In this document: in pieces, positions 7,921 to 57,658 of the stretch
Layout: the number at the start of each line of letters is the position of its first letter
How positions within the stretch are numbered: the first letter of the stretch is position 1
From: Pelagomonas calceolata
Taxonomy: Eukaryota
Length of the DNA: 64,000 nucleotides
Reading direction: 5' to 3'
Assembly (NCBI GenBank): GCA_918797485.1
Contig: CAKKNE010000005.1
Span: 1,674,001 to 1,738,000 of the forward strand
Translations under genes and position numbers: made by a program
The notes under the pieces: generated by a model
The model's input: only the letters and a program-made list of their open reading frames with translations
Database searches by the model: none
Told to the model about the DNA's origin: nothing

Positions 7921-8565
7921 GCGTCGGGAAGATCCCAGCAGAAGTAGGAGTAAGTTTGTGGAGCCTGAGGTCTGAGAGGGGTCCGTGGCTACCTATGACT
8001 ACCCTTACTTCAACTTGAGGTTGACGTCACTGGAAGTTGAAGCCGAGATACTACGGAGAGCTAAAACCCGCGCGGTAGGGGGGCTGTAGTCTTGGAGGGC
8101 CCGCGCGCGGTGACGGGGGTGGTGCGGGTTTTCCTTGCACCAGAGAGTGCCCCCAACCCCCCACCCGCGCTGGTATCCTATGATAATACGCCTAGCGTCC
8201 TAAAGACCGCTCTCGGACGAGTTCGACTCCCCGCGGTCGGCGTCGCGGGCCATAAGTCCCTTCCACTGGCGCGGCGCGTCGGCGCGTCATTTTGTCGATA
8301 GGTGCCCAAGCGGCCCAAGCGTACTCTCCCGACCGGCCGCGGGTTGACATGTGGCGACGGATAGCTGGTGGACTCCTGGAGGTGCATCGTTGTTTGCGTT
8401 GGTCACGCGCTTCTCTACTAGCAATTTGGAGATCTGTTCGCAGTCGCGCGCCGATTTAGGGCCTTCGCAGAGCACCAGCTTTTGGGCACTCGCAGACCGC
8501 CGAGGCGGCTAGCTTTCGACGCGCGCTCTTTACGCCAGGCGACGCGCGCTCTTTACGCCAGGCGC
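7921..8565. repeat. Dispersed repeat family A (degenerate); other pieces at 22251-22362, 22372-22549 (inverted) and 23771-23866
   Basis: Shared blocks: gtccgtggctacctatgactacc; gggttgacatgtggcgacggatagct vs agctgtccgttgccacatgtcaacc; gcagagca..agcttt..ctcgcagaccgccgag. Confidence 0.85.
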
Positions 8566-8991
8566 GGACGAGTTCCTAGGACCTCCACACGCGCTGGGGG
8601 CACAAATGCGCCTCCGCGCTAGCCGCAGAGCGCCCCCAAACCCCACGCGTCAAGTAGGAGGACCCGGACTAGTACTTCAAACGTGTCCCCCCGTTACCTC
8701 GCTAGGGAGGCGGCCAATCGCCGTATATGAAAGGACTGGAGAATGGGGGGGGCGCCGACTTGGGAGTGCCTCGTACATACAGTCGTCCTCTGCGACGGCT
8801 CCCGGCAACCCCGGCACCGCTGAACATGCAAACGGCCTCAGGGACTCACCAGCTATTGTCGGCGGGTTTCAGCTTCGTCACGACCATAGAAATACTGGCG
8901 AGTTAGACGATAAAATTCCCAAGGCCCGGAGATGAGTTGTGGTTGATCCTTACGCCAAATATATACCCAGGCCTTGACGCAGCAGCACGGC

Positions 8992-10679
8992 TCAATCAGA
9001 CACCTTGGTTTGCTGGGCTGCTCCGGTGTCCTTTTTAGGGTTTGCACCAGGGAGAGAAGGGAATGCATCGTCCACGGCAGAGAGATCAGCGGCATTAAAA
9101 CCTTTGACCTTGATACCTCGAACCGATGTCTTGGATGTCGGCGCACTGCTCTTTTCATTAAAATCACCGTGGTCACGCCTGGATGTCTTCTGCTTCGCTT
9201 CATCAGCTCTCTGCTTATCACGGAGAGAGGGAACCTTGCCACGAGGTAATGTGCAGAACCAGGTCTTTTTCTCCTGCAACTTTTTAACGGTGTCAGAAAC
9301 ACCATTGATTGTGGATGGTGGTTCCAATTCAAGCAAGGCAAACATCTCAATTGTTTCAGGTACTAGCATAATTTTCTCATTTATCTTCAGGCCACCTTTC
9401 TTCTTGCCACGACCTTTCTTTTTTCCAGTTGTTTTATTAAGACTCAGGTAGTCATCTTCGTGATCACGCCCTGCATTCTTGCCTGAGAGTACAAGGCCTT
9501 CGAACTCGCCTGCTAGCGAGATGTCGGCCTCGTCGGAATTGATCTGGGAATCATGGTTTACATGTTTTCCATACGTTGTCTCTAAGTAATTTGAGAGATA
9601 CTCACAAAGTTCCATTTCTTCCTCGTAGGGCACCCGCTTCAATTCCTCCGCTTCAGCTTCTTGTTGGCGTTTCTCTAGCTCTGCCTTGCGAGCTTCATCT
9701 TCGGCTTTTCGAGCTTCATTCCTAACGCGTCGGACCTCGCGCTGGTGTGCACCTGAGTTCAATAATAACTACGTGATAAATTGGCGCTCAACACGCTGAG
9801 TCCTGCGAAACTCATTCTCTAAAGTGCGAAATTCAGCGCGAAGGGCCTTGATAGTCTCTACCTTGGCTTGCTTTTCCTTTCTCAAGGCATCCTTGTCCTT
9901 GAAGAGGGCTGGAAGCACGGCCCGGCGTTCTGAGTTGGCCTCATTCAGTGAATCCAATATTTGTTTTTGTTCCTCGATTTTTTTCTTTAGAACATCGAGT
10001 TCTGCATTCTTAGCTGATAGATGCTCTGATATCGATTGGGAGCTCTTTCGTTCTGAGGAAATTGAGTCGTTGTTCGCAGCGAGATGTGAGACTAATTTCT
10101 TGGACTGCTTTAATTGGTCGATTTCCTTTAGCAACACTTTCTCGTCTTTAAGCGACATCGATGTCGTCGCCTGTCGCTTCTCTAAGGATGCAATCTTCTT
10201 CTCTATGTCCTCTGGTGAGGTATATTTGAGCTCCGCACGAAGTGACCGTCCCGCCTAAGTCATTTCAACTTAAATGTAATTGATTCCTGGCACATACAGT
10301 AATTTTCGAATCTAAGGATGCTTTCGCTGACTTCTGGAGAGTAGCAATTTCTGCACGATCGCGCATGATAGCATCTTTTCGTTCACGAAGAGACTTCATA
10401 GTTGCTCGCGCCTCTCTCAGCTCTTCAGACTGATTTCCTCCGGAGCACTTGGCCTCAGATATCTTAGCGTCGACTTCTGACAAGCGCTCATTAAAATCCT
10501 GCACTTCGTCGTTGAGGGCAACAATCTTCGCATCAAATTCACTTTTATTGGGGCCTGCAAACAGTAGATCAGCATCGATAGAGTAGTTTAGCCTCACGCG
10601 CGACTGGCTTCGCTGATTCCACCCTGGGTGGAATTTCATTGGCGGTTGCGCGACCGTCTTCAGCCGCCCCAGGCGGCAT
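8992..10679 (-). CDS. BFR1/proton-pump-interactor-like coiled-coil protein, 3 introns
   Basis: Exons join as MPPGAAEDG..KPVAR|PNKSEFDAKI..SKIT|AGRSLRAELKYTSPEDIEKKIASLEKRQATTSMSLKDEKVLLKEIDQLK..PYEEEMELCEYLSNYL..GKKKGRGKKKG..FALLELEPPST. This layout resembles Bfr1-type proteins. Confidence 0.7.
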
Positions 10680-11762
10680 AATCGCGAGGTTGGCGATCTT
10701 GGCTTGGACACCAGGTAGGAGGCAGGACACCAGGTAGACAGACAGTAGCGCTAGCGCGACGCACGCGTCCAACATCGCAACCGCGGTCCAACTTTGCCTC
10801 TTTCAGGCTTACCTTATTAGGCACTCAGGCTTACATCGCTCAAACTCAGGCTTACATCGACCACCCCCTGGGCCGGGCCTGGCCCCTTATCTGACATTCT
10901 TAAGAAAAGGCCGAGTTCATCCGTAAAGACCCGCACCGGCCCGCGTGTAAGTTGCTATGGCCGCGCGCTTCGGCAGTGTCGTATACTCAAACGCAGGTGC
11001 ATGCTCAGTGACTGGGGCTGCTCGACTCGAAGCGCCTGGAGATGCGGAATACTCTGCCTTTTCAGCACTTTAAAATACGCGCCTCTCGCCGAGATCCGGC
11101 GACAGGCGCATCATGGAATCTAACGAAGATTTCCTGCGTTGTGGATGAGACGCGCGTCCACTCAACCAGTATTTTCGTCTTGATTCGCCTGTCACGGTCT
11201 CAAATTTGCATTTGCCCCGGACAGTCGTCGCTGCGACAGGAAGGTCCGTGGTAACACCCCAAGTCATTTGCGCGTACTACGGATACTTTGGAGTGATGCT
11301 AGGGTAAGTTTAGGGGCGGTTTTCGCGGCGCGCAGCCTGCTCAGGCTGGTTTCGGACGGTATCAGGTACTAGGCCCGGGCCGGGCCTGGCCCGAGGGTTC
11401 CATTGGGCTCCCGCGTAGGCCTCGGCGGTCAGATACAGATTCTTGTGGGACCGCGGCCTACGCGGAGCCACTGGCAGCGCTGGCACGGCAGGACCTTTCC
11501 GGGGCGCTCGTCTTCGACTTCAAGTTGCCAGTGAATTGGCGGACTCGATAGCGGAGCCCACTCAGGTTCCCCGGCCCGGGACCCCCGGTTGCGCAGGAAC
11601 TTGGAAGTTGGAGACGAGCGGTACTTCCGTTGCTTACCACTGCAGTTGTCGTGGCCGCGCTAGCGAAAAGTAACTCCATCCGCAGCTCGCCTTCCAAAGA
11701 GCCCATGCTATCTCTTGACTTAGCCTTAGGTCTAGTATTCTAGTACGTTCGACGAGTTGAAG

Positions 11763-13225
11763 ATGGCACCGTCTTTGCGTCTGCTGTTGGCGCCGCTGCT
11801 TGGCACGAACGCACTACAGGGTGTAGCCACCAACAAGCACCTAAGGTACGGCCACCAGCCTTTTCTTGTATTCAAAGTCACAATAACATGATGGCAGGCC
11901 GACTGTCGCTTCAGTGGCGACAAACGATGACGTTCCTTATCCGCGCCCTCGTGATGCGAGATTACATTCCAAACTTTAGGTGTTTACCGAAACTATTACA
12001 AGCAAAGAAGCAGGCAGTAACTGGGAGACAAAGTATCGAGTGCTCACTCCAACTACCTTGGACGTAAAAAATGAAGAGTACACTCGTTTCGATAAATACA
12101 AGTCAAAGTACATGGGTCGATATAATAGCGTCGATCAATCGAAGACAGATATGAGCTATGCAGACTTCGGCGCGTTGGTGACAGCTCAAGAGTACTCCTT
12201 CAAAAATGGAGACATCTTGACAGGGACTGTTGTGCAGTATGATGGTCCCCAGAAGGCGCTGGTCGAGGTTGGAGCTAAAACAGCAGCAGTCTTGCCCCTT
12301 CGGGAGGCAACAATTTCACCTTTGGGGGATGGGGAAACAATATCTAGCTTTGTCGATGTGGGTGAGCAGTACGAGTTCCAAATCGTGTCGGATTCGCGTG
12401 ATGACGGACAAGTCACAGTCTCCATCAAGAAAATCATGTATGCAAAAGCATGGCAAAAACTGAGTGAACAGTATGCAGACGACCCTGTCTTTGAGGCAGA
12501 GATATTTCAAGTGAACCGCGGAGGTGCAATTGTCCTGGTAGAAGGCTTGCGTGCTTTTCTTCCAGGCTCGCATATAATGGGCACTGGAGGGGCGTCCGAG
12601 GCGATGGTTGGCAAGCGAATTCCTCTCAAGTTCCTAGAAGTCAATGAAGCGGCCAACAAGCTAGTCGTCAGCAATCGCCGAGCGGTAATAGAGCATTCGA
12701 TGGCTTCAATAAAGCGCGGTGACGTTTACGACGGTATCATCACAGCGGTTAAGCCCTATGGCGCTTTTGTTGAAATCATGGGCATGTCAGGGTTACTGCA
12801 CATATCACAAATTTCTTATGATCGTGTTGAGAATCTCGAAGCCACCCTAGCCGCCGGCATGGCCATCAAATGCATGGTGATTGACCACGATAAAGCCGCT
12901 GGTCGGATTGCTCTTTCGACAAAGACCCTCGAACCAGAGCCTGGTGACATGCTCCGCGACCCTGAGCGCGCATGTTACTGCGTTCTGACAAAAAGTGATG
13001 GTACCTGAAGCTACAACTCCATATACATAGGTATTTGCCCTCGCAGATGAAACCGCTGCAAAATACCACGTGAGCCAGTTTGAAATTACACACAACATCA
13101 CATTCATTCGCAACTCGCAGGCCCGCGTTGAGGCTGAAAAGTTGGCTCGCGAGCAGGCTGCTAAAGAAATGGTCCTCGGCCTTGGCGACTCGCTAGGGTC
13201 TTTAGAAGTCGCTGAGGAGGCTTAA
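11763..13225 (+). CDS. RPS1: Plastid 30S ribosomal protein S1, nucleus-encoded, 4 introns
   Basis: Three S1 domains (GDILTGTVV..ALVEVGAKTAAVLP; VNRGGAIVLVEGLRAFLPGSH; VKPYGAFVEI.GMSGLLHISQISYDRV..IALSTKTLEPEPGDML) and a hydrophobic presequence MAPSLRLLLAPLLGTNA. Confidence 0.93.
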
Positions 13226-13913
13226 TCGCTGCACTCCACTAGCACCAGATTAAGCGTCTGTTCTTTATATCAAACCCGCCGTGACTCGAAGAGAAGGGGG
13301 CCCGGGCCGGGGCTCCCCGGCGGCCTTCTAAAAAGGCTTTTTACTCGACCGGCCGCTCTATCTACTAGTAGGTTGCCACTTACCTGGACGGAATCATCGG
13401 AAGTCTCCGGACGTGGCGCGGCCCGGGGTCATTAACCCGGGTAATTGCCGGTTAGTGCGGGTGTTAACCCCAGGATCTTATATTATAGACTCGGACTCGG
13501 CCCGGGAGCCTGAGGGGTAGGGGAGGGGGCCCCATGGGCCACTGGCGCGGGCCCTGGCGGCCCCGCCGGGCCGTTGGCGGCGACATGCCTCGGTACTTGG
13601 CTCGGCGCACCTGAACGTACTCCAAGGCCCGACGGGCTGCTTGCGCCCATCCGCTCGCCCGGACGAGTCTTTTTCTCTAATCTCACTAAACGGGTTTTTA
13701 GTTGTAAAACCCGTCTGGTTATTAAGTACCGGGTTAACCCCATATCCCTCCCAAGGGGTAATAATAGGTAAATAACCGGTGAGTGCGAACCTGGCGAGAC
13801 TCGAAAATGGCCCTAAAAAAGGAGGCATGAGTACTTGCACGAGTCCGAGTCTTGATTACTTCTAATACTAGTGGTGCCGTTACGGTGACTCGTTTGGTTT
13901 TAACAACAGGAAG

Positions 13914-15513
13914 CTAGACTGAAGAATGGGGGTGATCATGATGGACATGGAAGCCAATACTTGCGGCAACTAAGGAAGGGGCGAGCTGTGTTGTCGACTG
14001 GACGAGCGAGAAAACACATTTTTTGTTGCGGAAAGCACCCACTGCATCCCAAGGAAGATCACCGTGGTACCAGACAGGGTTGCAGAAGGTTTCTGATTCG
14101 GAAGCCACGTGAATATTATCAAAGAGCCCTCTAATATCAAGGGCTAGCCGATAAAGCGTATATTCGCTCCACCATGTGCCATTGCTCCACGACCCCAGCC
14201 ATCTCTGCTGCCAGTCATCATCTTCAAATACATCTCGGATAAGTGATGTTGTGATTACCGAGCCAATAGTGGAAAGGACTGCCGGTGTGACGCCAAATGC
14301 TGCATTGGGGTAGTCATCTTCAGTTAGGCCAAGAATGTCTGCTGAGCCACGCCACCAGTGCGGATGTACACCACGATGCTCTTCCACGAAGCTGGAACAA
14401 ATGCAAAGAGTCAATTGATGAACACGGAATCATGCTGACACTGAATGCCACGTGCCTCTCCCACCCGGGAAAAATAGGGCTGCATCGAAGGTGCCAACCA
14501 GAAGAATATCTGCATCCACAGTTACATAGTAATTTGTCGTGACTCTCTGCGCCACAAGGAGTTTCACCGCCATTTGAAGGGCGTATGTATGCCAAGTCTG
14601 CTTGACAATTCCATTGAACAATGAAGATTCATTGATGACGGATGTTGGTGGACAAGTGTGCGACGCCTCGAGTACAGCTAGAGCAAAAGCTTGTGTATCC
14701 GGCACGACAACAAGCAGCTATATGAAACGGCATAGGCCACTGATTAGACCTTAGAAGGTACCTCTTGGATACTCTGATGAGTAGGGCTACTGTGAGCTTG
14801 CAGTGTTCCAACAAGCAAAAGTGCACGATGCGCATCATCAATCATTAGCCTATTCGCGTAATACTCTGTGGAATAAATAGTCAAGTACCCTTGGGCTCGC
14901 GGTAGAACCAGGGTGACTTTGTCGTCAACATTCTCCTCTAGCACCTTGAGATGTTTGTATTTAAATTGCAGTCTGCAATGCAATAATATATCTACCGGAA
15001 GCGAATAGACATTCTGAACCTTCACTAAGATAGGAGTGCTCGCATAGACGGGACCGGAGCTCGCATCATTGTCGTTTGTATTATTGCACCTAATATATGT
15101 TTCTTAGAATAAAATGGACGATCCGAAACCGCGCCGCCCCCGGGGCAAAATAGCAAATACAGCCCTGCGTGTATCCAAGTTTGTCCAACTTGCCATAGTG
15201 TCGATGGCACTACAATACTGTGTGCGGAGCTCATGGACACAACCCCGATATGAGCGTGCGCGGTTCCATTGATATAAAGGCAAAGAACATGCCCGTAGAA
15301 TGCAGTTGCATATTCCTCGTGTGTACGCACCGAGACCGATATATCCACATCGAGGCCGTTATTGGCACGTAGATCTGCGATGTTCATGATCGTACCATGC
15401 TGCGGCGCAATGATTCGCAGTTTGACACCCCCTGCGCACGTTACAAAGAGCGAAGTCGTTAAGCAAGCACATATACTATATACAGAACGACTTTTTTTTT
15501 TCCTACGATCCAT
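13914..15513 (-). CDS. Membrane-anchored/secreted protein with a DUF6492-like (nucleotide-sugar transferase-like) C-terminal domain, multi-exon
   Basis: N-terminal hydrophobic segment. Exon fragments YALQMAVKLLVAQRVTTNYYVTVDADILL (DxD), HPHWWRGSADILG, FGVTPAVLST and WSEYTLY across successive minus-strand ORFs. Confidence 0.6.
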
Positions 15514-18169
15514 TCCTACTTCCTACTTGATCCATTCCTACTTCCTACTTGGTAAAAAAAAAAAAAGTCGTTCACATTCCTACTTGGTAATACTAGCTCG
15601 ATACTGTTTCAGCCGATTTGGCTGCCTTCCGCCCCATCATTTTGTGCGCGCTCGTAGTATGATAGAGCAACCCCTACGGGCAAGGTCTCGACCAATTTAT
15701 AGCGGCTGCCGAGCGCCTGCGGCGCCGAACGGCACTGCCCCATCAGCACACACCCTCCGTACGTCGCCGCATGACGTCGTACCATGACCGTCTTCCGGTA
15801 TAACGTTCACCAAGAACCCACGAGCGGCTGACCGACAGGGTTTTGGGGTGCGATGAAGTTTTACCGTAAACGCGGGCGTCAAACGAGGTGCGTCGACCAC
15901 CGATACGCGAAGCCTGAGTGCGAAACGGGCTCAGGCTCCACGACCAAAACCTGTTGGCACGGTCCTCCGCGGGGTTCGTGGGAACTGCGCGGACCGCTTG
16001 GGTGCTCGGGAAAACCCTCCATGCTGTCACTTTCCCCTAAAAATGTTATAGATAGCTATAGTCAATTCGGGTTGCGGGGGCGCGCGCCTAGACCTAAAAA
16101 TGTTAATTCTTATTATTACTAAACGGGTATTTTTGGGGACAGACTCCGGCGAGCCATTTGTTACCCTTAGCCTACGAAGGCACAAACCCGCGTCTAGGGG
16201 CCATCGACACGGACCAGGAGACTGCCCTGGGGCCGTGGGAGCGGCCGAGGAGTCGGTGGTTTTGCGGCCGGCGCGGCCTACGACGCCACCGCGCGCGGCG
16301 ACTGTATAAGGGCAAAAACACACTTTTCTATTACCATGGAGCCTAATTGACGAGTCGCGATAACCTGATGGTATGTGCCGAGGTCGAATTTCGTCCGTGG
16401 GTACGTCAGTTCTCGCCGACACGCCATGGACCTTCGCGCCGCGACGTCGTCGAGGTGCAACACGCGGCGCGAATCGCAAGCTGGGGCAGCCCTTCGCGTC
16501 TCGCCACCCGGGTCGATACCTTTGGCGGCCTCGGTGCTCGCTGAGCTGTGCCAATCGGCCGATCGTGCAATTTCGCAGAGCATCGAAGTCAGGGAGAGCA
16601 AAACTCAAGTGGCACAAGCTCGTGAACGCGGCCGCGCCCGGCTGCCGCTGGCGGCGCTCGTCGGAGGGGATGGTAGGCCGCCCTGCCACGCCAATCCGCA
16701 CTGCAAACGACCGCGTTTAGGCTGAGAACGCCGCCGGAGAGCTTGACGTGCGCTGAAGCTAGTATGAGGCTGCAATGTGTATAGAGCCAAGGTGGTCATG
16801 GCAACGGTATTGGCGACTGAGGTCATAGGTGAATCCTTGTTTATAATATAAGCACTAGGTGTAACCCCGGCCTTACCAAGACCAAATAACGGCTGGCACC
16901 GCGCGCACCAAGCCCGCCGGACCTCTGAGTGAAGGCTGCTCGACTCGGAAGCGCCTAGTACTCCGAGAGTCTGCTTTTTAATTTAAGCATAAGAAAAGCA
17001 TTACTAATGCGAAAGCCGCACCTAGCGCCAAGATACATCGACAGAAGGCTTGCTCCCCCATTCGGGCCGCAGCGACCATCATGACCGTTTTGACGTCGCG
17101 AGAGACTAATTAGGGGTCCTCTTTGTACCAAACGACATGAATGGATGACGTTTAGGTATTAAGGAGGACAAGTGCAATCAATCATCGCCGCGAGTCCGAG
17201 TCGAAGGAGCTTGCCGGCCTGTGCGGCAACCAGAGCTGCGGCGCTACGGCGATAGTGGCCCATGTCTAACTTAAACCCTGCCGCGATGGAGCCGCAAGCG
17301 GAATTTGGGCGGGAGCGGGAAAGGAGGGATGTTCAAGTTCATTGCGATTACCACCGGCGTCCATGTTGTATACTAGTATACTGTACTAGTAGTTAGTAGT
17401 CTGGTAGGCGCGTGCGGCCCGCCCGTAAGTGATGATATCGTGCTTGGGTAACGAGAAAATCCCTCTTTGGTCGCATATCAAAAGCATCAGCGCGGGAACC
17501 GCGCCCCTTCCACGCAACCGGTAGTCGCCTGGTTAGTGGTGGTAAAGGTAACTTGCCAGTGAATGCAATAGCTAAATAAGGGCCACACACAGGATCGCGA
17601 CTGCTCTGCAATCTCTGTAATAAATTTTAATTGCTACTGTTTTTTATCGGACAAACAGTTACCGCAGTACACACCCGTTGCGGCGCCGTGTTTTCCTCAG
17701 TCCCGAAAGTCGTCGATTTGTGGATATATCGGTATCCACACGACGCTAACACGGGAACTAGATACGCAACCGCAGCCTCGGCGCTCATAGCAGCCGCGAA
17801 ATCTCGTGCGTAGAGTACGCTATCGACGTAGAAACCCGCGAGCTCAATAAGCGCGGGCCTACCTATCTTTAGCGTGCGTAGAAGTCATCTATCGACGTGC
17901 GTAGAGGGGGCGCCGCTGCGTAAACCCGCTAAAAAGCAGAGTTATCTTGAAAATCAGAGTCTTGCGGGCGCTCGAGCACCGACCATGCCCGCAGGAGCGT
18001 GCATTCCCTCGCGTAATCTCTTCAAGTAGAAGACGCGCTAAAATTGCGTTGGCGTCACGATTTATGTTGTCCTTTACTAGTTTGCCGCCCGACTTTATTG
18101 GAGTTCATTCAACTGGAAGTTACAATACAGAGCCTAAGTGCCGGTTTTACCAATAGCTGCATTGCAAGC

Positions 18170-27496: not shown

Positions 27497-27515
27497 TGTG
27501 TAATACTAAGCACGC

Positions 27516-43910: not shown

Positions 43911-44200
43911 CCCTGCACCGGAAAATTCCTTTGAGCCCTATATAGATACAGAGCTATATGAAATGACATGTCCATTTATACGTCTGCAGACAATTTGTTG
44001 GTTGGGGCGGGTTTTATCTCGGACCATCGCCGCGTCGCAGCTGATTTCTCGGTGTGAGGCTGTCCGCACGGTAGAAAACTTTGCACAGCTCATTATGTTA
44101 GCATACGGAACCTGCGCCTCCGAGTCAGCAAAAATTTGCCGCCAAAGCGCCCGAATCCCCTAAAATTCGAAGTCTCCACGGAACATTAAGTCTCGCAGGG
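43911..44200 (-). mobile_element. MITE-like family B, apparently complete 290-bp copy with CCCTGC...GCAGGG termini
   Basis: Reverse-complement homology to 21857-22224. Terminal inverted hexamers. Flanks are CA (left) and TA (right). Confidence 0.7.
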
Positions 44201-44621
44201 TAATTCGGCCTAAATTCACCTTAGGGAGGATCGCTCAGAATCTTACTGTCAAAACTTTCCCGCCGGTGTGGGGGTGCTAGTGGGGGGGCGCGCCGGGGGG
44301 GGGGCTGGTGGGTGAATTCACACCCTCAAGTTTAGGCTTTACCCTCAAGTTTAGGCGGTCGTGTTCTTGGGGCCATGCCGGTCACTGGCACGCCGCGGCT
44401 GTCGCCAGTCACTGGCGGCCGCACCGTGACTGGCATCCGAGTCTGGTCCGAGTCTGGTCTTGACTGTAGTTCTCAAAGGGCTACTCAGGCTCTTTGCTTT
44501 TCTTAGTCCTTCTTTGGGACTCTTGGAGAGTTTCGCGACGTCCATCTATCCTTCTTCTAGTATCATGATGCAATGCAAGCTCGTATCTCGCCGCCGACAC
44601 ATATTGTGACACAAAACCGTC

Positions 44622-46223: not shown

Positions 46224-47754
46224 ATAGAACTTTGACATTCGATATTCCCGGGCCTTACAACTGATCCTTACGACTTCGCTTCATGAGCCTCATAATTTAC
46301 AAGCAGATGCTTGGCGGGTCGCGGTTAGTAAACCTAGCGGATGATACAAAAAACACATACATAATCCAAGATATTGATTTCCGATATGAAAACCACCCCT
46401 TTCTTCGAGTCACGGTTAGTACCGGGCAGTGACCGTGACAACTTGCAACCGTGACCGTGAAACTTGAAAATACTACAAGTACAAAAAATACTTTCAAGCC
46501 TGAGCCTGGGTTATCCGCTGGGGGCGATAGTACCATACTAGGAAGCTTGGGACCCGGGCCCGCCAAAATCCCCGGGCTGTGTCGGTTTCAACCTCAAGAC
46601 CACCACCGTGACTCGGACAGCGTGGTTCACTAAGGCTGCCCGGACCAGTGGCAACTCAGGCTTGAAGTTGTAGCAACTTGAACTGGACGAGTAGGAACCT
46701 CGGCTTTCTTGTCAGTCTTGATAGCAACTTGAAGGGCACGAACATATCATGATTACCCTGACCGCCCAGGTGGCTTTAAAATTTTGGTACCGTGACCGTC
46801 ACAATACACAATACACAATACATCTTGGGTCATATAAAGAGACCTCAGGCTGGATAAATAGATGGGAGCGTCTCCGGCCCGGAATGGGATGGCCGAATTA
46901 CCTCTCGCACCCCATAAGGGAACTGTATAAAGCGGAAAGACGAGTTGCTCAGCGATCACAGTCTCTGAACAAAAAACAAACTCGATTAAGGATGTGAACG
47001 GCCTCGCTGACAGCCGCAGCCCTCCTGGAATACCCTGAATTCTGCCATTTTTTTTTGCTCAAAACCCCTTGAGCGATGCGGATGCTCCGATAGTTAAGCT
47101 AATCGGTCAAAACCCGTTTAGCTGGCAACTAGTTAGTTAACTAGCTGCGTCTAAACGGGCTGATCCGTGCCCGGCGTCCTAACCCGTCCGAAAGGTATCA
47201 GCCGCGGGTCACTAAGCCTGACTAGCCGCCCACCCTGGTTCGAAGCACCTGACTAACTACCCAGGGTGGCAACGCGTCGTCTGCGAGCAGCTTCAGGACA
47301 CGCTTGCAAAGTCCGCCAAGGCAAGGACGTCCACTTGGGGCCGAGCTCAAGTCCACCCCAAAGTGGCCGAAGGGGCACCGGACGCTTCAAAGGGTCTACG
47401 CGGCCTTATTCCGTCAGACGAGGTTACCCGCCATCTGGTGAACTTGCCCTTGTGTACAGAGGCAGGATATATTAGAATTAGACTAGGGTTAGGGTTGGGT
47501 TGGGCGAGAGTCGGGTTAGAGCGGATCCGAAATGGTCCTAGCGTCGGCGGCAGTTTCGCGGCAACATGGGCTCATCGGAACGCGGGGAGCGAGAGAAATG
47601 TTTTAGACGGGCGGAAAGGGCGAGCGGCGAAGAATAGCGTTCTGACCCGCCCCTGGACCTACGGCTCATGGACCCGCACCTACAGAGAGCACCCTTTTAG
47701 GAAGGAGGTCCATGCGACCACCTTACTCGGTCCTAGCCCGACGGGTGGGTCCAG

Positions 47755-48255
47755 GGGGAGCGGGACCGCCTAGCCCTAGGTGGCCGGCGGCCCCCGGTGC
47801 CCCCCTAGGTAGGGCGTAAAAAAACCGAACCCGGCTCATTTCGCAATTATTTTTCGCGCGGTTCGCTGCCTCGCGGCGCGACGACGCTGCTCAACGACTG
47901 CGTTAAGGCTATGTCCACACGCACATGATCTCAGCGACGGAATTGGCACAGATAGCTGCCCCTGCGCGTTCCACTGGCTTCAGTACCTTCTCGGGCAGCC
48001 TCGGCTCGGCGAAAATTTTTCGCGGGGAGCCTCCGAGTCACGGGGCGCGTCGAACGGCCGAACTTCAGGCCAGCTTTTCTCGGCCGCATCACGTGCCCAA
48101 CTGCCAACACAACGTGCGCTGGATAGCCCTATCTATGGGCTTTCCAGCGCACCATCCCGTGGCAGTTGGGCACGCAATGGCGCTCAGGCTGAGCACAGAA
48201 CGTGTCACGGTTTGGCGCCAGTGGCCACAGCTCTAGGTCTGCACTGCAGAGGCCG
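47755..48255 (+). repeat. Hairpin-containing dispersed repeat E, copy 1 (copy 2 inverted at ~53835-54138)
   Basis: Both copies translate to QHNVRWIALSMGFPAHHPVAVGHAMALRLSTERVT on opposite strands and share ggggagcgggaccgcctagccctag and aaaattttttcgcggggagcctccgagtcacgggg. Confidence 0.92.
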
Positions 48256-48715
48256 GGGTTCCTTCCATAAGACTACGCACAACAGGAGCGGGATACGCAG
48301 CGTGTGCATGGCTACGCCGCATGCGAGACGGGGCGGCTAAGCGTGCGACACCCATCGAACCAAACTGAGTACAAACACGGGGACCGCTCCGACCGAACCG
48401 TTCCTCCTACGCGTATACGGGGGGTCGAAGGACCGGGCGGCGTGCGGGTTGGGGCGAGCACAGCAGCAGCGACCTGCGCGACTGTTATTTGTCCCAGTCC
48501 GTAGATTGGTCCTGTCGCAACCCCCTGACGTGACGCACTCGTTGAGTCGACGTTGCGTTGTTCGCGGTTACCCGCGGGAGTCACGCAAAGGGGTCGGTCA
48601 GTGGGGATCGAGATATGGACCTACGTACTAGTTCTAGTCTGGGTTTAGAACGTACTGAACGCGCTCGTAGTCTTGGAGGCCCAAGATGCAAGCTGGACAT
48701 GAACGCTGAGACTAA

Positions 48716-49564
48716 ATGAGTATGGCTAACTCGTCAGATCTCATTTTCAGTCCGCGAGACACATTGACGATTCGAGTGTCAGAGAGTGAGCCAGCGGAGA
48801 CCGCCCTGAAAATATCGAATCCCACGTCTGAGCACATCGCTTTCAAGGTCAAGACCACGTCCCCAGAGCGTTATCTTGTAAAGCCAAACCATGGATTAAT
48901 TAGATACGGGCGCCAAACTGAAGTAACAATCATCATAGTGCATACGAAAAAGAAAGATATCCTCACCGAGGCACTAACCAGTCCTGCAAATTGCAGGGAC
49001 AAGTTTCTGGTACAAAGTTTGGGGATTGATGCCATACTCGCTGATGAACTTGAGTCTAAAACGTCACTTGAGCTCGCAGATGCAATAACTCAGCTCTTTG
49101 TAAAGAAAGACAAATTCAAATTGCAAGCGAAGAAGCTGCCTGTTGAACTACTACTTGACGACCCCCCTAGAAAGGATGGCTCTGGGGTGGAAAAAGGCCA
49201 CATCTCCGTGGGTAAATCACCTGAATTGACAAACTCAAGATTGATGCCTGGGACCCCTGAGGCCATGTTTGCGGAAATAGTGGCTCTACGCAAAAAGTAT
49301 GATGATCTTGTGGCTTTTACAGTAAATCTAACAGCCGAACGTGACAGTATGTCTCTGGACTTACCGAACTCTCATACTTGCCCCGAGGGAGTGCCGCAAG
49401 ATAAAACTGCATCCTTTGGTGGCTCATCCTTGAACGCTGAGAGACGCGGTATGGATAGTGATATGCCTCCAGCCTCTTCAATGACATCAGTCATCTCCAT
49501 TTCACTTATTTCATGTCTATTCGGCTGGTGCTCTTCGCAATTGGTCCGTCAGTGTGGATCATAG
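48716..49564 (+). CDS. VAP: VAMP-associated protein (MSP domain, coiled coil, C-terminal hydrophobic anchor)
   Basis: LKISNPTSEHIAFKVKTTSPERYLVKPNHG, DKFLVQS, LRKKYDDLVAFTVNLTAERD. Confidence 0.88.
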   Translation: MSMANSSDLIFSPRDTLTIRVSESEPAETALKISNPTSEHIAFKVKTTSPERYLVKPNHGLIRYGRQTEVTIIIVHTKKKDILTEALTSPANCRDKFLVQSLGIDAILADELESKTSLELADAITQLFVKKDKFKLQAKKLPVELLLDDPPRKDGSGVEKGHISVGKSPELTNSRLMPGTPEAMFAEIVALRKKYDDLVAFTVNLTAERDSMSLDLPNSHTCPEGVPQDKTASFGGSSLNAERRGMDSDMPPASSMTSVISISLISCLFGWCSSQLVRQCGS

Positions 49565-50075
49565 TTCGCAAAGCTCTTATCTACCTTCCTCCGGCCACAA
49601 ACATCTGCTTGGGCAACAGTCCTGCACTCTCGGGACTGCATCGCAGCAAAGTAGACCCCGTTAATAGACGATATTTGGACTTGAGCGACTAGATGTCGCC
49701 CGGAAGCTGGGGACTAGACCCTTGGTCGCTACTCAATCAGTTTGAGACCGAGTCTGTTTAGTATGGAGATGGTAGGTCGGTCTGTGAAAAATGGAGGAGT
49801 AAGCATTCGTACTTTACTAGTAGAACTTGCCGTTAGTAAGTTTAGTGCAGATTGGTAAGTTAGGAAGCATCTACCCAATGCCACATATGGGCTATTTACA
49901 ACGCGATGACTAAGTGTCTAGTGGGGGTTAGAGTTGGGGGCCAATTCAATTTCAGCAATCTTTTTTTCTTTCTCCTTTTTATACTTGCCAAGGCAAAGCG
50001 TACTGACGTTCCGTCAGCACGTTTCACCGCGAGAAATTCAACGTTCCGGTCGGCGAATCGAATGCTCCGCACCTT

Positions 50076-50276
50076 ACGCCACGAAGACTCAGTAACCTTC
50101 CGCGAAACCCGAAATCGGTGGTTTATAAGAATCAAAAAGTCTTAAACCCGAACCATCACCCCCCACGCCGGATTTAGCACCCTTGCGGAGTAGCCCCCGG
50201 CAGGGAAAAAGGTGTGAACCAATCCAGGGTTACCTGCCCTCAGGGCAGCTGACCCTGAAGTGGTTCATACCTTTTT
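50076..50276. repeat. Repeat D, copy 2
   Basis: Reverse complement of 33591-33790. Confidence 0.93.
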
Positions 50277-51543
50277 TCTCTCCGACTCGGCCCCGGGAGT
50301 CTGAGTCACCGTGACTCGGACCGAGCCTGAGTCTCAGGCTTACGCAGTAAAACTCTAAAAGCCTGAGGGCTGCCAGTGCGGCTAACGGAACCCTCTAGGA
50401 CGCGACCGATTCCATTGAATGGGCCGGTACTAGTAGTTCAAGTTCAAGTTGTGTTCGTTATTTGACCTCACTGGCCACAGCCTGAGTCATACCACGGCGG
50501 GATTTTGTTTTTAATTTCTTTTTGGCATCCGCCAGGCAGGACATAAATAATAATCATCATCATGGCACGCCTGGGCAGCTACTGACATCATCAGTGACAT
50601 GTACTCCTCTTTCGAACTTCAAGTTCTATTGAGTTCTATCGAGGGTGGAGGATTCGGATGAAGCAAAATCTTCAAGTTGACGCGATGTTACAACAGTTGC
50701 ACTCGCCGAGGCGCCCAGATGTTGCCCTGCTACATCATATGCTACTAGTCCAAGCGGGTCTAGTTGCCGTTAGCGTGGGTGTGCAATAGTCACCGTTGGC
50801 GTCGAAAGAACGGAATGCTCGAGGCGTTTCTCGCAAAACATGTTGACGGAGCTAGTAGACGATATACAACGCTGTGGGGCGGGGAAGACCGTCGAACGCC
50901 ACTGATGCTCGCTGGCACTCCAGGAGATCGCGATGGCCATGATTCCTATCGATCTGTGACCCGCGTGCTTTTGTCAAACTTCCACAGCTCGGAATTATTG
51001 TAGTCTGAAATACTCGGGTCTTCAAGACCAGACCTTCTTAGGTTGATGATACCAATCATTCTTTCCAATAGTTCACTATTCATCCAGTTAATGTGCTTGC
51101 GCAGTCAAGCGGGGTTTTGAAAAGCAGTTGTAATTGCAGCAGGAATTCCTGTTGAATGAACGACCTTACTGCGTGCCAAACCAATACCGTTTGCAAAGCT
51201 TGCGCTAATTAAACGATTCCGCGTGGTCGATCCTGATGAGATGGATGACGAAGAGAATTTGCATATAAATGATGACGATGAGATGATGAGTTGTGTAGAG
51301 AAAAGAGTTCGGAACACATGCCTATATCTGTCGAGTCATCTCAGATCATCTGGACTAGTCACTAGCCACTGCAGCAGCAGCCTAGAACTTGAAGATGGTA
51401 CCTGGATTTCGGTTTGGGTTCCCAATCACGGTGCGTCGTCTACTTGTTGTGGAGCACTTGTAGTGACGCAAGACTAGCCGCATTTTCATTGCAGTCAAGC
51501 CCATAGACGCAGAAGCCATCACATAGTACTAGAAGATTATGAG

Positions 51544-53679
51544 TCATGCTTTGGTGTCGCTTGGGCTAGATAAGGAGCCAAAAAAGTTCCACACGCAGAT
51601 GCACGAGTCGATGCCGATGGAAACAAGTTGACGCTCATCTGGGGACCACTGAACGGAACTTACGACAGCAGAGTGGGCCCAGCCGTCAGCAATGCACTTT
51701 GGTGGGGCTGTTGCTAACACGTTGAGCTCAAACACAGTCACCATTTCGTCACGGCAGAGAGCAAAGTATTTTCCTGATGGGGAAACAGCAACGCATGTGA
51801 CGGACTGGCCATTAATATTAATGGAAAGAACAGGCTCAGGCGCATCGCAGTCCCAGAAGAGAACACGTCCACTGGCATCGCAAGTGACTAATTCTTGCTC
51901 GCTGTCAATGCGCTGTGTCAGACCAGTGAAAGCGCCCTCACGCATCATATGACCAACTGTGCGTTTCTCTTTGGAAATATCGTGTGTGAACGCAGCACAA
52001 TCGGAACCGGCGCTATGAAATAAATGCGGATTGATAGCATCAATAAGTAGGCCAGTGACTCCCTTGAGATGCTCAGCAAACTGCATCATCATCTCACGTG
52101 TGCTCAGGTTCCAGACACGTACTGAACCGTCAAGGGAACCTGTGACAAGATAGGCAAGCTTGGTCTCAACCCAGCATGTTATTGCCGAGACAGGTTTACG
52201 ATGAGCTGTTGGAATAGTCCATTCAAGGTCACCACTCCCTGAGTTGAAGCACCTTACATGGCAGTCGCCATAGCCAACAATGACAGCAACATCGGCTACC
52301 CAGCATAGGCATCGCGCGCCACCGCCAAACTTTGCATCACGTTGAACTGAGTTTGGTGCTGACTCGGTTAGCCGCTTAGTTGTTGCTATTGCGGAGTAGT
52401 CTGAGAGGTCCCATATGATGACCTCGCCATCAGCAGCAGCCGTTGCAAAGACGTCAGGGCGCACGCCGAAGGCGAGAGCAGTTGGCTTCTCAACGTGTGA
52501 TACTGTCAACAACACCCCTGGCAGTGCAAGATTGTCCGCAAGTAAGCGATATGTTTGACCATTACTTGTGCCTGCGAGCAATTCGGCACCTCCATCGACA
52601 CAAGACAGGGCAATAATGGGACCGTCAAGTTGCGCCTGCGAGTGAAGCTTCCAGCGCATATCGTAGCCGGTGATCTTGCGCACAATGCCATCGCCACCAC
52701 CCGCAAAGACAGCAGGTCGGTCAACACCATGTGTCACGGGCGCTAAGACCATAGCAAGCATACCCCCTGAGCACACCGGCACAGATGCACGGTATGCGCC
52801 ACCTGGGCGTGTTGTGTCTAGTCGGGCCTCGCCCCTTGACCCTGCAAGGCGCAAAACAAGAAGATCACCCTCCATGGTGCCAGCTAGCAAGTACTTTGCG
52901 GGCTCCTCTTCAGGGGCCTCCGCCGCGTATGTTGCCAGCGTCGAGCACCGATAGTTCCGAGCCATGCCTGCAGCCGGCATGACCACAGGCACTGTAGCTA
53001 ACTGCCACTGCTGGCGTGTTGCATCGAAAGAGAGCTCGCCATGATATACTTCGGCAATGCCACGCATAGCGGTTGCGAGACGATAGACGCGGCGGCGGCC
53101 GCAGTCACGCGCACCAACCCACTGGAAGAGACTGAGCTGCTTGATGTACCGCTTGCCAAAAACAACCTCACCTGAGGCAGTATCCCAGATGTACAACACA
53201 CAGTCTTCTCCAGCCGCCGCCAGGAAACGCATATCGTCCGAAAATTCCAAAATTACAACACGCTGCGTGAGACCACGCAGCCTGAAGGCTACAGTTTGTG
53301 TCAAAGTGTCCCAAATAACGACAAGTGCAGCGTAGCCTGGGACGCGCGTCGACCCGAGCTGGCCAGAGGCTAATAAACTTCCGTCCCGCGACGTAGCGAG
53401 CGCCGAAATTGGCTCGTCGTGTGCTCGAAGGAGCTTTTGTTTGTGTGGGTCAGTTAGATCACCAATGACAGCAATTGATCCCATTGCTTTGAAAAAATTG
53501 CTCCCGCCCCCGGGCAACGCTAGGAATGTCCGGGGTGAGTTGCCAGTGTACCCTATCACATGCTCAAGGTCCAGTGGACCCTCGCCGACCTCTCCTGCTC
53601 CCCTGTTGTTAACCTTGATACATTTTTCATACACGTCATCAGAGCCCCCCGCCGCCTCTTCTAGTCGTGCTTCGTGCAT
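51544..53679 (-). CDS. WD40 protein, CFAP52/WDR16-like, single exon
   Basis: LDLEHVIGYTG, LLRAHDEPISALATSRDGSLLASGQ, LVTGSLDGSVRVW, AHSAVVSSVQWSPDERQLVSIGIDSCICVWNF. Confidence 0.8.
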   Translation of the reverse strand: MHEARLEEAAGGSDDVYEKCIKVNNRGAGEVGEGPLDLEHVIGYTGNSPRTFLALPGGGSNFFKAMGSIAVIGDLTDPHKQKLLRAHDEPISALATSRDGSLLASGQLGSTRVPGYAALVVIWDTLTQTVAFRLRGLTQRVVILEFSDDMRFLAAAGEDCVLYIWDTASGEVVFGKRYIKQLSLFQWVGARDCGRRRVYRLATAMRGIAEVYHGELSFDATRQQWQLATVPVVMPAAGMARNYRCSTLATYAAEAPEEEPAKYLLAGTMEGDLLVLRLAGSRGEARLDTTRPGGAYRASVPVCSGGMLAMVLAPVTHGVDRPAVFAGGGDGIVRKITGYDMRWKLHSQAQLDGPIIALSCVDGGAELLAGTSNGQTYRLLADNLALPGVLLTVSHVEKPTALAFGVRPDVFATAAADGEVIIWDLSDYSAIATTKRLTESAPNSVQRDAKFGGGARCLCWVADVAVIVGYGDCHVRCFNSGSGDLEWTIPTAHRKPVSAITCWVETKLAYLVTGSLDGSVRVWNLSTREMMMQFAEHLKGVTGLLIDAINPHLFHSAGSDCAAFTHDISKEKRTVGHMMREGAFTGLTQRIDSEQELVTCDASGRVLFWDCDAPEPVLSININGQSVTCVAVSPSGKYFALCRDEMVTVFELNVLATAPPKCIADGWAHSAVVSSVQWSPDERQLVSIGIDSCICVWNFFGSLSSPSDTKA

Positions 53680-53834
53680 CTGTTTATGTACGACGAGACA
53701 ATTGCGTTAACTCCCAGGAATACCTGCTATGATATGGAACGACGATTTTTGCTTTGGTTTCAATTTTCACTTCAATTATATCTGGAATACCTGGATAGAG
53801 AAGGCATAGTGAATACGGTAGCCATGGCTTGCAG

Positions 53835-54138
53835 CGGCCTGTACGCTGAGGGTAGAGCTGCGGCCACTGGCGCCAAACCGTGCCAGTGACACGTTCTGTG
53901 CTCAGCCTGAGCGCCATCGCGTGCCCAACTGCCACGGGATGGTGCGCTGGAAAGCCCATAGACAGGGCTATCCAGCGCACGTTGTGTTGGCCGTTCGACG
54001 CGCCCCGTGACTCGGAGGCTCCCCGCGAAAAAATTTTCCGAGGGGGTTGCCGGCTGAGGCGAACCCTAGGGGACCACCTGGGATCGCCGGCCACTGGCAC
54101 CTAGGGGCCGAGGCTAGGGCTAGGCGGTCCCGCTCCCC
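53835..54138 (-). repeat. Repeat E, copy 2 (internally deleted)
   Basis: Reverse complement of parts of 47755-48255. Confidence 0.9.
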
Positions 54139-54535
54139 AGTCACACAGATATCCCATCTTCGAGCTCTAAACGCGTACTCACCACATCAGGCATCAGGCT
54201 GTACCGTAGGTAATAAAGCTAAACTCTGAGATAAATCAATCAATCAATCCTGAGCTCGCGGGGGTCACGCTACAACTGTGCGCTTAGACCCGCCAAACTT
54301 TTGCGTGTCGCGTGTCGTGAAATAGTGGGCGGAACACGCGACGAGGAGACGCCGTTTGGGCTTACCATACGAGCACATTTGGCTGCACTAAAGATAAATC
54401 AACTAGCGACGAGCCGGGGCCTAGCTCGCGGGTTTCCAGCTGCCCTCCGTTCCCGTCCGCCATACAGTCGGCTCAGGGGCTTAGAAAGCTACATTCTTGT
54501 CTGGCTCCGCTCATGCTAATCGCCGACGGTTTTTG

Positions 54536-56667
54536 ATGAAGCTGGGATCGAGGTCAGCTTCACCGTTCTATACTTTGCGAAACAAACTCTTAATTCATGA
54601 AGACGCAGATTTGCAGCCATTGGAAGGCCAGGAAGCTTCTGTATTTTGGGAAGATCTTCAAAGGGAGACCAGCTCGCGGAAACGCATATATGGTATTGCA
54701 AACGCGCACAGGATCGAACGCGAGCTTGTGGAACGCTTTGGTGTTTTCAAAGCATTTGTGGCACATCCATATTCGTAAGGTGGCGACGTCGTTCTTTTTC
54801 TTCTATTATCCATTAAAATTCATTATGATTATACAGGCGGAGATTGGTGCAGTGCACAGAGTCCGTGCTCAAGGACCAACTAATAGGGGATCCGATCCTG
54901 CCTCAGCATACCTGCCTGGTATTGCTATTCATGGCTTATCGGGGTAAAATGCCGATAATTAAATTTGTTTTACTGGCATGCCTGTTGTTTGCAGTACATC
55001 CAGTGTTGATACTCACAGGCCTGGTAATGCTTCAGTGCCTGCACAGACAAATGAAGGCACCAAAAGGCAAGTTTACTCGTGGATCCTTATCCAAGGTCTC
55101 AACAATTGATGCAGTAGTCTATGGCGGTGGATTGAGGGGCCTTTACACTGCCGCACTGCTGGCACGTGCAGGGGGGAAGGTGACAGTGCTAATACCACAG
55201 TCCCGTTGTGAAGGTGGGGCCACTGCTTGTCTGGATGGTGCTCCATGCGATTTTATTCTGGATCGATGCGAATTTGGACAGGTGTCGCGCTATGAGACGC
55301 TGCTCTCAGTGTGTTTGCATGCAAGTAAGCCAGTGATTTTCGAGCCTATCGGTGATCAACGGACGGGTTGGGCACACGGAGTCCTCGTTGTTGGTGATCA
55401 CTGTCATCCTGTTCCGCTGCGCAGTGGTGCAAAGGCATGGGTTAATGACCTCTCTCGCGCATCTGGCGCCGACAGACGCATGCTGACAATTGCGCTAACA
55501 CAGGCCATTGCGGTGTATAATGAATTGCTCCCTTTTGTGCTAACCAAGATACCCTACAGCGCCACCCTTCTATGCTGGCTTGGAGTAGGTTGCCAGCGAA
55601 ACGAGACAATACCCGGCTTCACCGCTGCTGCGTGTATAACAGTTTCTGAGGCTGCCAGTCACATCACGCACATCACCAATAATTCTTCATCACCCACAAA
55701 TAGTCATTTTGTGCGCTCCTGCACAGTCTATGGCCTCCTCAGAGAAGAACATGCTCCAATATGCGAAGTATCGTTCGCGGCCTGGTCTGCATCTGTAGTC
55801 CATGGAATCAACGGATATCATATTCCCAAAGGAGGAATCTCTCAGCTCTGTGCCTCCCTCCAAGCTACCGTTCAAGCAAATGGCGGCCAGGTCCTAACCA
55901 ATGCATACGTTCGCGCTATCAGACTTCGAGACCATTCACGCAACTTGATCCACATCGCCTCGACTATAGGAGAGTTCACCACAGATAAGCTAGTGCTTGC
56001 TGTGGATGCTATAGAGTGCTTTCGGCTTATTGACCGCACCAAAGATGTTGCCGGAATCTGTCCTCGAAGAAACAGCAAGACCGTGTCACCGTCCAACCTA
56101 AAAGGGCCCAGCATCCGTCAGGTTGTGCGAACCCTAATTGCTTTTCCTGGGACTTGTAAGGATCTTGATGCTCCCAAAGATTTGCCCATCTTCTGGCGAA
56201 AGCAAAGTGCAACCTGCAATGACCCTAAGGTCCTAGATTGCAAGACAATTACCCTCCGGGACTCGCCAAATGGTGTCGCTTCTTGTGTTGTGGAGGGCCC
56301 CGTATCGTCGCTGTGGGTCAATGCCTTTGGTGGAAATGATACTGCCACGGATACTCGTAACAGACTCCACAATGACATCCTCAGTACAATTGCTCACCTC
56401 TTCCCTCTCACTCGAGGCAGAGCCTTGTACATCAATACATTGGCGCCGTCACCACGAGGCTTCTCTCACACCCCAGCAAGATACTTGGTCGGAAAGGATG
56501 CGTTGGGACCCGTCATTAATGGGCTGAGTGACATTTTCCTTGCGCTCGATGACTTTGCTGTATCGAACTCTGCTGGATCCGTGATAGCGGGGTATCTAGC
56601 CGCCCATACAGCGCTTGGCTACACAAGAGCCGCAATAATATCCCAGCTTAATCAGGACCTAACCTAG
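54536..56667 (+). CDS. FAD-dependent oxidoreductase, retinol saturase / carotenoid isomerase-desaturase-like, 1 intron (54775-54836)
   Basis: TM segments followed by the Rossmann motif DAVVYGGGLRGLYTAALLARAGGKVTVL, GYHIPKGGISQLCASL..VQANGGQVLTNAYV, HTPARY and GSVIAGYLAA. The start is uncertain. Confidence 0.75.
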
Positions 56668-57248
56668 AGGAATGTTCGATTGAAACAGACCACCATTGCC
56701 TTTTTGGGGGAGGAAGACGACTCCTGACGCTGACAGCGTCACAATCAATACATTTATTCCCTGCAAATTACCCCAAAGGCTGTCATACGATGGCAACAGT
56801 GTCACCTGCGGCTCTGATACTACTATCAGGGAGGTTCATATGGCAGGTGACGACTCAAAAAACAACATTTCGCTTGGGGTCTGAGTCATGCCAGACACTA
56901 TTTTGCGGTGCCGGTTGGCGGTTGACTTGAAATCGCGCTTCAAGTTCACTATCCAGAGAGCGAAAATATAGTGCCAGCGGCCAGGCCCGGGCGTCCTTGG
57001 CGCGGCTGCCGGGCAACGCTGTGGAGTTAAATGATTCCTGCCCCTACCACCGCCACGGACCAAGGTCACGGTAGCGTCAGCATGACTACCACGGCGGTGA
57101 GTCGGAGAGCCAGTGTATTACTTGTGCACTACGCCGTCTACGGTACTTAGTATATACATACCTCAATTTGCGCTGGCCCGGGGGCATGCTTCGAACTGGA
57201 TTTGTAGTAGATAACTTGAACCTATAATTACTTACAACCACGCCGTAG

Positions 57249-57658
57249 TATAAGGATTTTGCATACTTTATGTCCCGTCCTGAGTCCTGACTGATAAAAC
57301 ATACTCAGGCTCAGGCTAGTAATAACTTGAAGACCATTAAAAATCCGACCGTGACTCCGAGGCTCGGTCACGGTATTCAGTTCTTGAACTTGAAATCCGA
57401 GATAAACTTTGCCAGTGAAAGCCGGCGTCCCCCTTTTTCGCCAATTATGAATGCTGCTAAAATCTTATGAAAACTTAAAAATCGTGATCGCCGAATACTT
57501 CGCCCGTTGGAGAAACCGTGACAGTATAGACGAAACATATAAATCTAGTTCAAGTTCCCGCCCCCCCGGGCCGCCTCGGGCTAACGGCGTGGCACTATTT
57601 CATACGTTTCGTGGGATCCGATTCAGAGCGAAGTCACGGTCGCCACGGCAACGCAGGG
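57249..57658 (+). repeat. Repeat C, copy 2, expanded by multiple 6-bp insertions
   Basis: Colinear with 43640-43880, with extra ctcagg, caagtt, cacggt and cttgaa units. Confidence 0.8.

Follow-up and report, generated by a model that had tools for sequence, protein, structure and literature searches.

A 64,000-nucleotide (nt) stretch of Pelagomonas calceolata DNA (contig CAKKNE010000005.1, positions 1,674,001 to 1,738,000; hereafter the window) carries, in its non-coding DNA, numerous 6-bp insertions built by a rule at arbitrary dinucleotides. Where an empty site holds a dinucleotide d, the filled site reads d-C-rc(d)-G-d, rc(d) being the reverse complement of d, and we refer to this 8-bp sequence as a word. 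The words are probably footprints left where a cut-and-paste DNA transposon excised; such an element would have C...G ends, duplicate 2 bp of its target and, on departure, leave hairpins on the flanks of the donor site.

Abundance and distribution of the words

We counted 189 words in the window, ten times the 18.8 that a third-order Markov model predicts; 30 dinucleotide shuffles of the window gave a mean of 16.4 and a maximum of 23. Outside annotated open reading frames (ORFs) there are 178 words in 36,928 bases (4.8 per kb), and scars make up about 3% of the non-coding bases. The ORFs hold 11 words in 27,072 bases (0.41 per kb), which is close to background. Four of these 11, in THOC5 and FNR, were aligned and proved to be ungapped conserved motifs, that is, chance matches, and in-frame protein scars were rejected for these four.

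72..58342, no strand assigned: whole field of non-coding words, 178 in number and outside ORFs at about 4.8 per kb
About 39000-40150, 46250-46850, 50300-50680 and 56940-58340: densest blocks of words, from per-kb counts

Fourteen of the 16 dinucleotides serve as d at about equal rates, and eight different strand-merged words are each enriched, with only the C and the G fixed in common. Since these two bases are fixed and the bases flanking the words are near random, with a slight GC lean only, the C and G are not derived from the target. Words with one mismatch are in excess too (347 against 201 expected), which argues that the scars accumulated over time. Analogues with 1-, 3- or 4-nt units show no comparable excess in the window, plain d-rc(d)-d stands at background (259 against 258) and plain d-C-G-d is unenriched (259 against 271). 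Each of the other 15 classes of spacer bases has 7 to 44 non-coding cases, as opposed to 178 for C,G, and many of them overlap true words (25 of the 60 with C,C or G,G spacers, 31 of the 44 with G,C spacers). Other unit lengths and other spacer pairs were rejected, as an independent excess was absent.

Filled and empty sites in paralogous repeats

An earlier note on this DNA had listed eight pairs of filled and empty sites in paralogous repeat copies. All of its strings lie within a few bases of the places given, and the copies align as paralogues; seven pairs are clear, while the eighth (43801 versus 57549) is weak, its diverged right flank offering one matching base only. Empty sites carry d once and filled sites carry it on both sides. 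Filled sites do occur in either copy, as had been claimed, the pairs 7934/22267 and 22291/7962 being reciprocal.

22267..22274, + strand: filled AG-C-CT-G-AG; empty paralogue AG at 7940-7941
7962..7969, + strand: filled AG-C-CT-G-AG; paralogue empty (AG) at 22293-22294; forms a reciprocal case with the 22267/7940 pair
23797..23804, + strand: filled CA-C-TG-G-CA; empty paralogue CA at 8493-8494
53881..53888, + strand: filled TG-C-CA-G-TG; the inverted paralogue (48206-48207) and the orthologues L001, L004 and L005 are empty; gain in the window lineage
54092..54099, + strand: filled CA-C-TG-G-CA; empty inverted paralogue at 47781-47782
44119..44126, + strand: filled TC-C-GA-G-TC; empty inverted paralogue at 22615-22616
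57633..57640, + strand: filled GT-C-AC-G-GT; empty paralogue GT at 43862-43863
57549..57556, + strand: filled TT-C-AA-G-TT; paralogue at 43803-43804 putatively empty (TT), a weak pair with a diverged right flank

Polymorphism among haplotypes

One metagenome scan provided 11 orthologous loci (L001 to L011), nine with 98-100% THOC5 identity and two (L008 and L009) with 79-82%. All 11 bear words, at 2.1-6.7 per kb. The sister lineage formed by L008 and L009 holds the same word family, with 24 distinct words, and thus the process predates or spans the lineage split.

The earlier note had proposed looking for a spike of +6 bp in the indel spectrum, and there is one. When the window was compared with its orthologues, 17 of 115 distinct indels were 6 bp long, as opposed to 4 with a length of 5 bp and 5 with a length of 7 bp. 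The inserted sequence was exactly C-rc(d)-G-d in 11 of the 17. In a clean-flank set, for which ten close sequences, L008 and L009 not among them, were compared all against all and an indel had to be bordered by 8 identical columns on either side, 6-bp indels were 14 of 59; 11 of the 14 fit the rule, one of the 11 being a tandem unit.

The claim that insertion followed the dispersal of the repeats is also supported, as the 14 sites polymorphic among haplotypes comprise 8 gains, 1 loss and 5 unpolarised cases, with a polarity that is approximate because the haplotype grouping is coarse (from 800 bp) and L010 is a mosaic. The gains, each found in a single haplotype or a small group, are at 49815, 53881, 50313, 50479 and L004:14658, and at 49807, 50470 and 44013, where the window is empty. 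The sole inferred loss is that of one unit of the tandem pair at 50437, in L001, and the unpolarised sites are 43506, 48032/54009, 54256, L001:6049 and L002:4741.

43506..43513, + strand: polymorphic word, empty in L002, L004 and L005; unpolarised
44013..44014, + strand: TT, an empty site in the window; L002, L004 and L005 are filled
48032..48039, + strand: polymorphic word, repeated in the inverted copy at 54009-54016; L001, L004 and L005 are empty; unpolarised
49807..49808, + strand: empty TC in the window, filled in L011 only
49815..49822, + strand: word filled in the window only, empty in L001, L004, L005, L006, L010 and L011
50313..50320, + strand: word nested in the right end of the 50308 word; the window and L011 are filled, L001 and L004-L006 empty
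50437..50450, + strand: tandem word pair; L001 has a single unit (inferred loss)
50470..50471, + strand: empty AC in the window, filled in L001 only
50479..50486, + strand: polymorphic word; the window and L011 are filled, L001 and L004-L006 empty
54256..54257, + strand: empty TC in the window, filled in L004 and L005; unpolarised

Over 21,588 aligned bases, only 15 substitutions and 4 indels separate L004 from L005, yet one of these indels is a word (L004:14658, empty in L005). Given such a difference between near-identical sequences, word formation is very recent or ongoing. Between the window and L005, a BLAST alignment showed 295 substitutions and 6 word differences, or up to 9 when other comparisons were counted, and the rate between haplotypes is about one word difference per 35-50 substitutions. 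L005, an independent assembly, has the word at the identical place for 43 of 49 resolvable sites (21 further sites could not be resolved), which excludes an assembly artefact.

Two observations concern individual sites. In the TTTT run of one repeat family (window 44010-44015 and its paralogues), two independent words lie one base apart in two species (L002:4494 and L008:8556), and this run is a possible hot spot. The inverted copies at 47755-48235 and 53853-54138 lie about 6 kb apart and contain an 83-bp hairpin. One word is present in both copies in the window and missing from both in L001, which suggests conversion between the arms.

A putative excision mechanism

The mechanism that we propose for the words, which like the shortage of CG and GC words described below is an addition to the earlier note, has four steps. 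The element would insert at d and give d-[C...G]-d. At excision, the non-transferred strand would be nicked one base inside the element, the C staying on the flank, and the resulting 3' end would attack the opposite strand at the exact element end and form a flank hairpin, d-C-rc(d), with the C at its apex. The host would then open each hairpin about 2 nt beyond the C, so that d-C-rc(d) and rc(d)-C-d remain as 3' tails; Artemis is known to open hairpins about 2 nt past the apex. Finally, the tails would anneal via the 2 nt that the duplication guarantees, and fill-in would yield d-C-rc(d)-G-d. The doubled d would then be a transposon target duplication and the fixed C and G the end bases of the element. 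The donors would be short-lived in comparison with their near-neutral scars. When tails were joined in silico, the word was obtained at a 2-nt overlap for 7 of the 7 dinucleotides tried.

A self-complementary d presents a special case. Its 5-nt tails could pair at full length around a C-C mismatch and leave d-C-d or d-G-d, an outcome that would win at CG and GC, so that +3 products are predicted at palindromic targets. In silico, a 5-nt overlap with one mismatch arose only for the 4 self-complementary dinucleotides. CG and GC words together number 6 of 189, which is background level, where about 29 would be expected from dinucleotide frequency (P 8e-8), and they are absent from the 24 words of L008 and L009, the 62 of L004 and the 46 of L001. 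We infer a flank hairpin intermediate from the product and from this gap. Decay of CpG was rejected as its cause, words with one CpG (AC 31, GA 24, CC 27) being as frequent as CpG-free ones (AA 26, AG 27, CA 29). Among the clean 3-bp indels, 5 of 6 are d-C/G-d with a self-complementary d (null 0.245, P about 0.004). The candidates in the window are as follows.

43681..43685, + strand: TA-C-TA, candidate +3 product of a self-complementary target that is still plain TA in L002, L004 and L005
43805..43812, + strand: CG-C-CG-G-CG in the window, CG-G-CG in L002, L004 and L005; a single site may have given both the +6 and the +3 product
48434..48441, + strand: candidate +3 product (GC-G-GC or CG-G-CG), absent in L011

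A stem lengthened to 5 bp by the flank (rc(d)-C before the word) was seen on 20 of 356 sides, an enrichment of about 3-fold (permutation mean 7.1, maximum 16 in 2000) that a longer microhomology would predict. Two words lie wholly inside an older word, at its centre. Example sites for the flank and nesting patterns are 13844, 17195, 27268, 39368 and 57387, and 145 and 40113.

Several results weigh against excision as the source of the words. A scan for inverted repeats and duplications found neither a C...G-ended element with a 2-bp duplication nor a donor-filled site in the window and in the eight loci L001, L002, L004, L006 and L008-L011, and the 16 large breakpoints examined likewise showed none. 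No transposase domain was found by Pfam in 30 plus 134 ORFs, among which were 31 of the 47 listed locus ORFs. The +3 idea was formed after the +3 indels and the CG/GC counts had been seen; unfiltered 3-bp indels fit it in 5 of 15 cases only (by eye), near the null, and across non-coding DNA d-C/G-d is no more enriched than d-A/T-d. AT and TA words, of which there are 10 and 9, are undepleted. The model explains only partly why rc(d)-G precedes the word on 36 of 356 sides, a 6-fold excess (permutations gave about 6-7): 16 of these sides belong to full tandems (8 adjacent tandem pairs), and the excess beyond tandems is unexplained. Lastly, two carnation CACTA footprints given in passages of PMC3859356 are variable and off the rule (TGCATGG and TGGCCGG at TGG).

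The 83-bp hairpin at 48092-48174, with CA on both sides, was rejected as an element, since an empty site is absent and the second copy is differently flanked. An excess of d-C/G-d at palindromic d throughout the non-coding DNA was likewise rejected, being indistinguishable from d-A/T-d. A listing of CACTA/TAGTG sites contained nothing convincing as an element.

If the words are indeed excision footprints, they would record at base resolution the cutting mode of an uncharacterised transposase, with a nick placed one base within the element end and a hairpin on the flank, partly mariner-like and partly hAT/RAG-like, and they would also record how the alga opens hairpins and joins the ends. In a wild lineage of marine phytoplankton, transposon turnover would then cause much mutation that otherwise goes unseen. 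The presence or absence of each scar would be a nearly homoplasy-free marker in population studies, and any genome could be scanned for the rule to map the past activity of such elements.

Alternative explanations

The failure to find an element or a transposase, along with targets that are nearly sequence-free and intergenic and a product that is unusually uniform, could be taken to mean that no element was ever involved. A host process would then start with a dimeric nuclease making a 2-nt staggered break, followed by fill-in, addition of a C to each 3' end, hairpin formation and rejoining. Spo11/topoisomerase VI-like nucleases are dimeric and make such 2-nt staggered breaks, and the CG/GC gap, the tail joins and the stem extension would fit this process equally well. 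However, it needs an untemplated addition that is always C together with hairpin sealing, for which we know of no precedent, whereas an element end supplies the C and G with no extra assumptions. Moreover, the absence of an element carries little weight when about 64 kb and short loci were searched and when other elements with terminal inverted repeats (TIRs) are recently polymorphic. We consider an element-free origin improbable. If it were true, a rule-built 6-bp insertion would be a standing class of mutation in this algal lineage.

An excision of the Tc1/mariner kind without hairpins, in which each flank would keep one element base and a polymerase would copy the flank backwards into rc(d), seems to us quite unlikely. 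Tc1/mariner (Stowaway) footprints do resemble the words, as they keep the 2-bp duplication intact on both sides with element-end bases in between, like the C and G here (passages of PMC4561436). But mariner targets are TA only (tabulated in PMC4423477) and such footprints lack an inverted copy of the flank, whereas 14 of 16 dinucleotides are used here, TA accounts for 9 of 189 words and an inverted copy lies at the centre. The fixed C and G would suit retained element bases, if they come from an element, yet plain d-C-G-d is unenriched, and unprimed backward copying amounts to a hairpin.

The words are also inverted triplications (d-rc(d)-d), of the short kind that template switching or slippage at replication could generate with neither a break nor an element, and slippage does act on existing words, as 8 tandem pairs and one tandem loss indicate. 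Template switching cannot supply a fixed C and G, however, and it is at odds with the background level of plain d-rc(d)-d, with the unenriched 1-, 3- and 4-nt units and with the small spacer classes, many of whose members overlap true words. As the origin of the words it is largely refuted, and we give it a very slim chance. Finally, the confinement of the words to non-coding DNA might recall selected motifs (binding or uptake sites) or an artefact of assembly, but we find motifs scarcely credible when eight strand-merged words are each enriched, share nothing other than C and G and arise as whole 6-bp indels, and an artefact is refuted by the agreement with L005.

Comparison with known transposons

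Flank hairpins are known for hAT, Transib, RAG and Muta1 (a MULE), and three cleavage pathways have been described, according to passages of PMC5499845. As presented in excerpts of PMC5873905, the P-nucleotide footprints of Ac/Ds centre on the complement of the flank base, microhomology is found in 51-100% of cases and the products are many. The words resemble the footprints of hAT, Transib, RAG and MULE elements in having an inverted copy of the flank (P nucleotides) at the joint and in joining by microhomology (PMC5873905, PMC5499845, in the same passages); rc(d) is central in 189 words against 16-19 expected. They differ from them in that Ac/Ds lose the flank base adjacent to the element and, in the relevant passages of PMC5873905 and PMC4561436, keep no element bases, whereas here both copies of d are whole and a fixed C/G stands at the apex. 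Furthermore, Ac/Ds are described with an 8-bp duplication and a spread of products, whereas here the duplication is 2 bp and one product dominates. In place of the 5-8 bp target duplication of hAT elements, the empty sites show a single dinucleotide. A 4-bp parse of the hAT type was rejected, since it needs C and G flanks at every word and these are present in 21 of 178, and a search of the window for hAT-like patterns gave none for duplications of 6-10 bp and one for 5 bp.

PMC4561436, in the passages cited, contrasts the flank palindromes of Ac/Ds, which lack element bases, with mariner footprints, in which element bases lie between duplications. The present scar appears to combine the two, an Ac/Ds-like flank palindrome and mariner-like retained bases. 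It probably behaves as a hairpin-type excision footprint, yet judged by the features that define hAT and mariner footprints it is neither. The odds lean slightly towards a cleavage geometry, namely a nick one base inside the element together with a flank hairpin, that falls outside the three described pathways.

As for the donor, the CMCT clade (EnSpm/CACTA, Mirage, Chapaev, Transib, PlavakaB, ESTA and Lanisha) has mostly CA..TG ends and 2-5 bp duplications and shares motifs with RAG1 and Transib, as portions of PMC12730594 report. With these ends and duplications the clade is the best candidate, and it fits a C...G element with a variable 2-bp target; the 2 bp seen here fall within its range, provided that they are a transposon duplication. 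Of the 5'-CA..TG-3' termini, however, the scar displays the first base (C/G) only, no such element turned up in the window and eight loci, and no transposase of the clade's kind (DDE, with C(2)C and H(3-4)H motifs) was among the 164 ORFs scanned. If the words are excision footprints, a CACTA/CMC-clade donor is a guess to which we would give not quite an even chance.

Numerous 10-bp repeats in Ustilago maydis have been suggested to be transposon footprints (mentioned in a passage of PMC4081816, citing another paper). Compared by description only, these repeats are likewise numerous, small and intergenic, and differ in length and lineage. We found no account of the present rule, or of such scars in pelagophytes, in a literature search that was thin on subscription papers and excluded supplements.

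Other elements and genes

Several other mobile or repeated sequences were seen in the window and its orthologues. A 387-bp TIR element with a 7-bp duplication (L002:4519-4905) is present in L002, L004 and L005, the window being empty at 44025-44031, and it already holds a polymorphic word. Another element of about 750 bp, with GC-rich TIRs and a 5-6 bp duplication, lies at about 6230-6977 of L001 and is absent in L004. Polymorphic TIR elements with duplications of 5-7 bp imply that transposition is active in this organism. At 6213-7429 of the window, 410-bp inverted arms that are 99.5% identical, with subterminal repeats and no words inside, form a young foldback-like element. A 201-bp repeat (95%) with a 69-bp terminal hairpin occurs at 33590-33790 and 50076-50276, and the copy at 49957-50277 is absent in L001, L004 and L011. 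In L004, a LINE-like fragment at 14802-15182 has a weak, sub-threshold match to zf-RVT (zinc-ribbon) and is likely a piece of a non-long-terminal-repeat retrotransposon. The ORF at 345-968 had only unnamed matches in the Atlas, with scores of 0.85 or less.

A second word, TA-CCGTAGG-TA, has 11 copies on both strands, which are clustered (26580-26636, 27384-27491, 54202-54212 and 58466-58539) and mostly at GTAC. It is asymmetric, shows a +9 polymorphism at window position 48651 in L011 (L011:2814), and is likely the scar of a different, TA-targeting element. At 39429, 42799, 47569 and 50875, indels of 19-33 bp are bounded by microhomologies of 3-5 bp (by eye), which suggests frequent microhomology-mediated end joining.

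The window is eukaryotic, with 50.9% GC, and its long ORFs encode Spt16, an S1 protein, FNR, CC2D2A, THOC5, a VAP/MSP protein, WD40 proteins and a dynein heavy chain; searches for tRNAs and Rfam families gave no matches. Collections of viral and prokaryotic sequences yielded no further DNA of this organism. In a tree of FNR with 26 rows, for which 25 of 120 listed matches were used, the window joins Pelagomonas, Aureoumbra and Sarcinochrysis in a group of 16 rows (support 90/88, unstarred); the DNA is likely that of a marine pelagophyte. Three consecutive ORFs at 27516-33127, two of them with weak GAF-domain matches, are probably a single large gene. The nearest named relatives of THOC5 are from pelagophytes (40-42% identity), and an unnamed metagenomic protein cluster of 244 members is near-identical to it. 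At window position 45819, within THOC5, L004-L007 have an in-frame +3 (GC-G-GC), which matches a 533/534-amino-acid length polymorphism of the protein cluster and is either slippage or a coding +3 scar.

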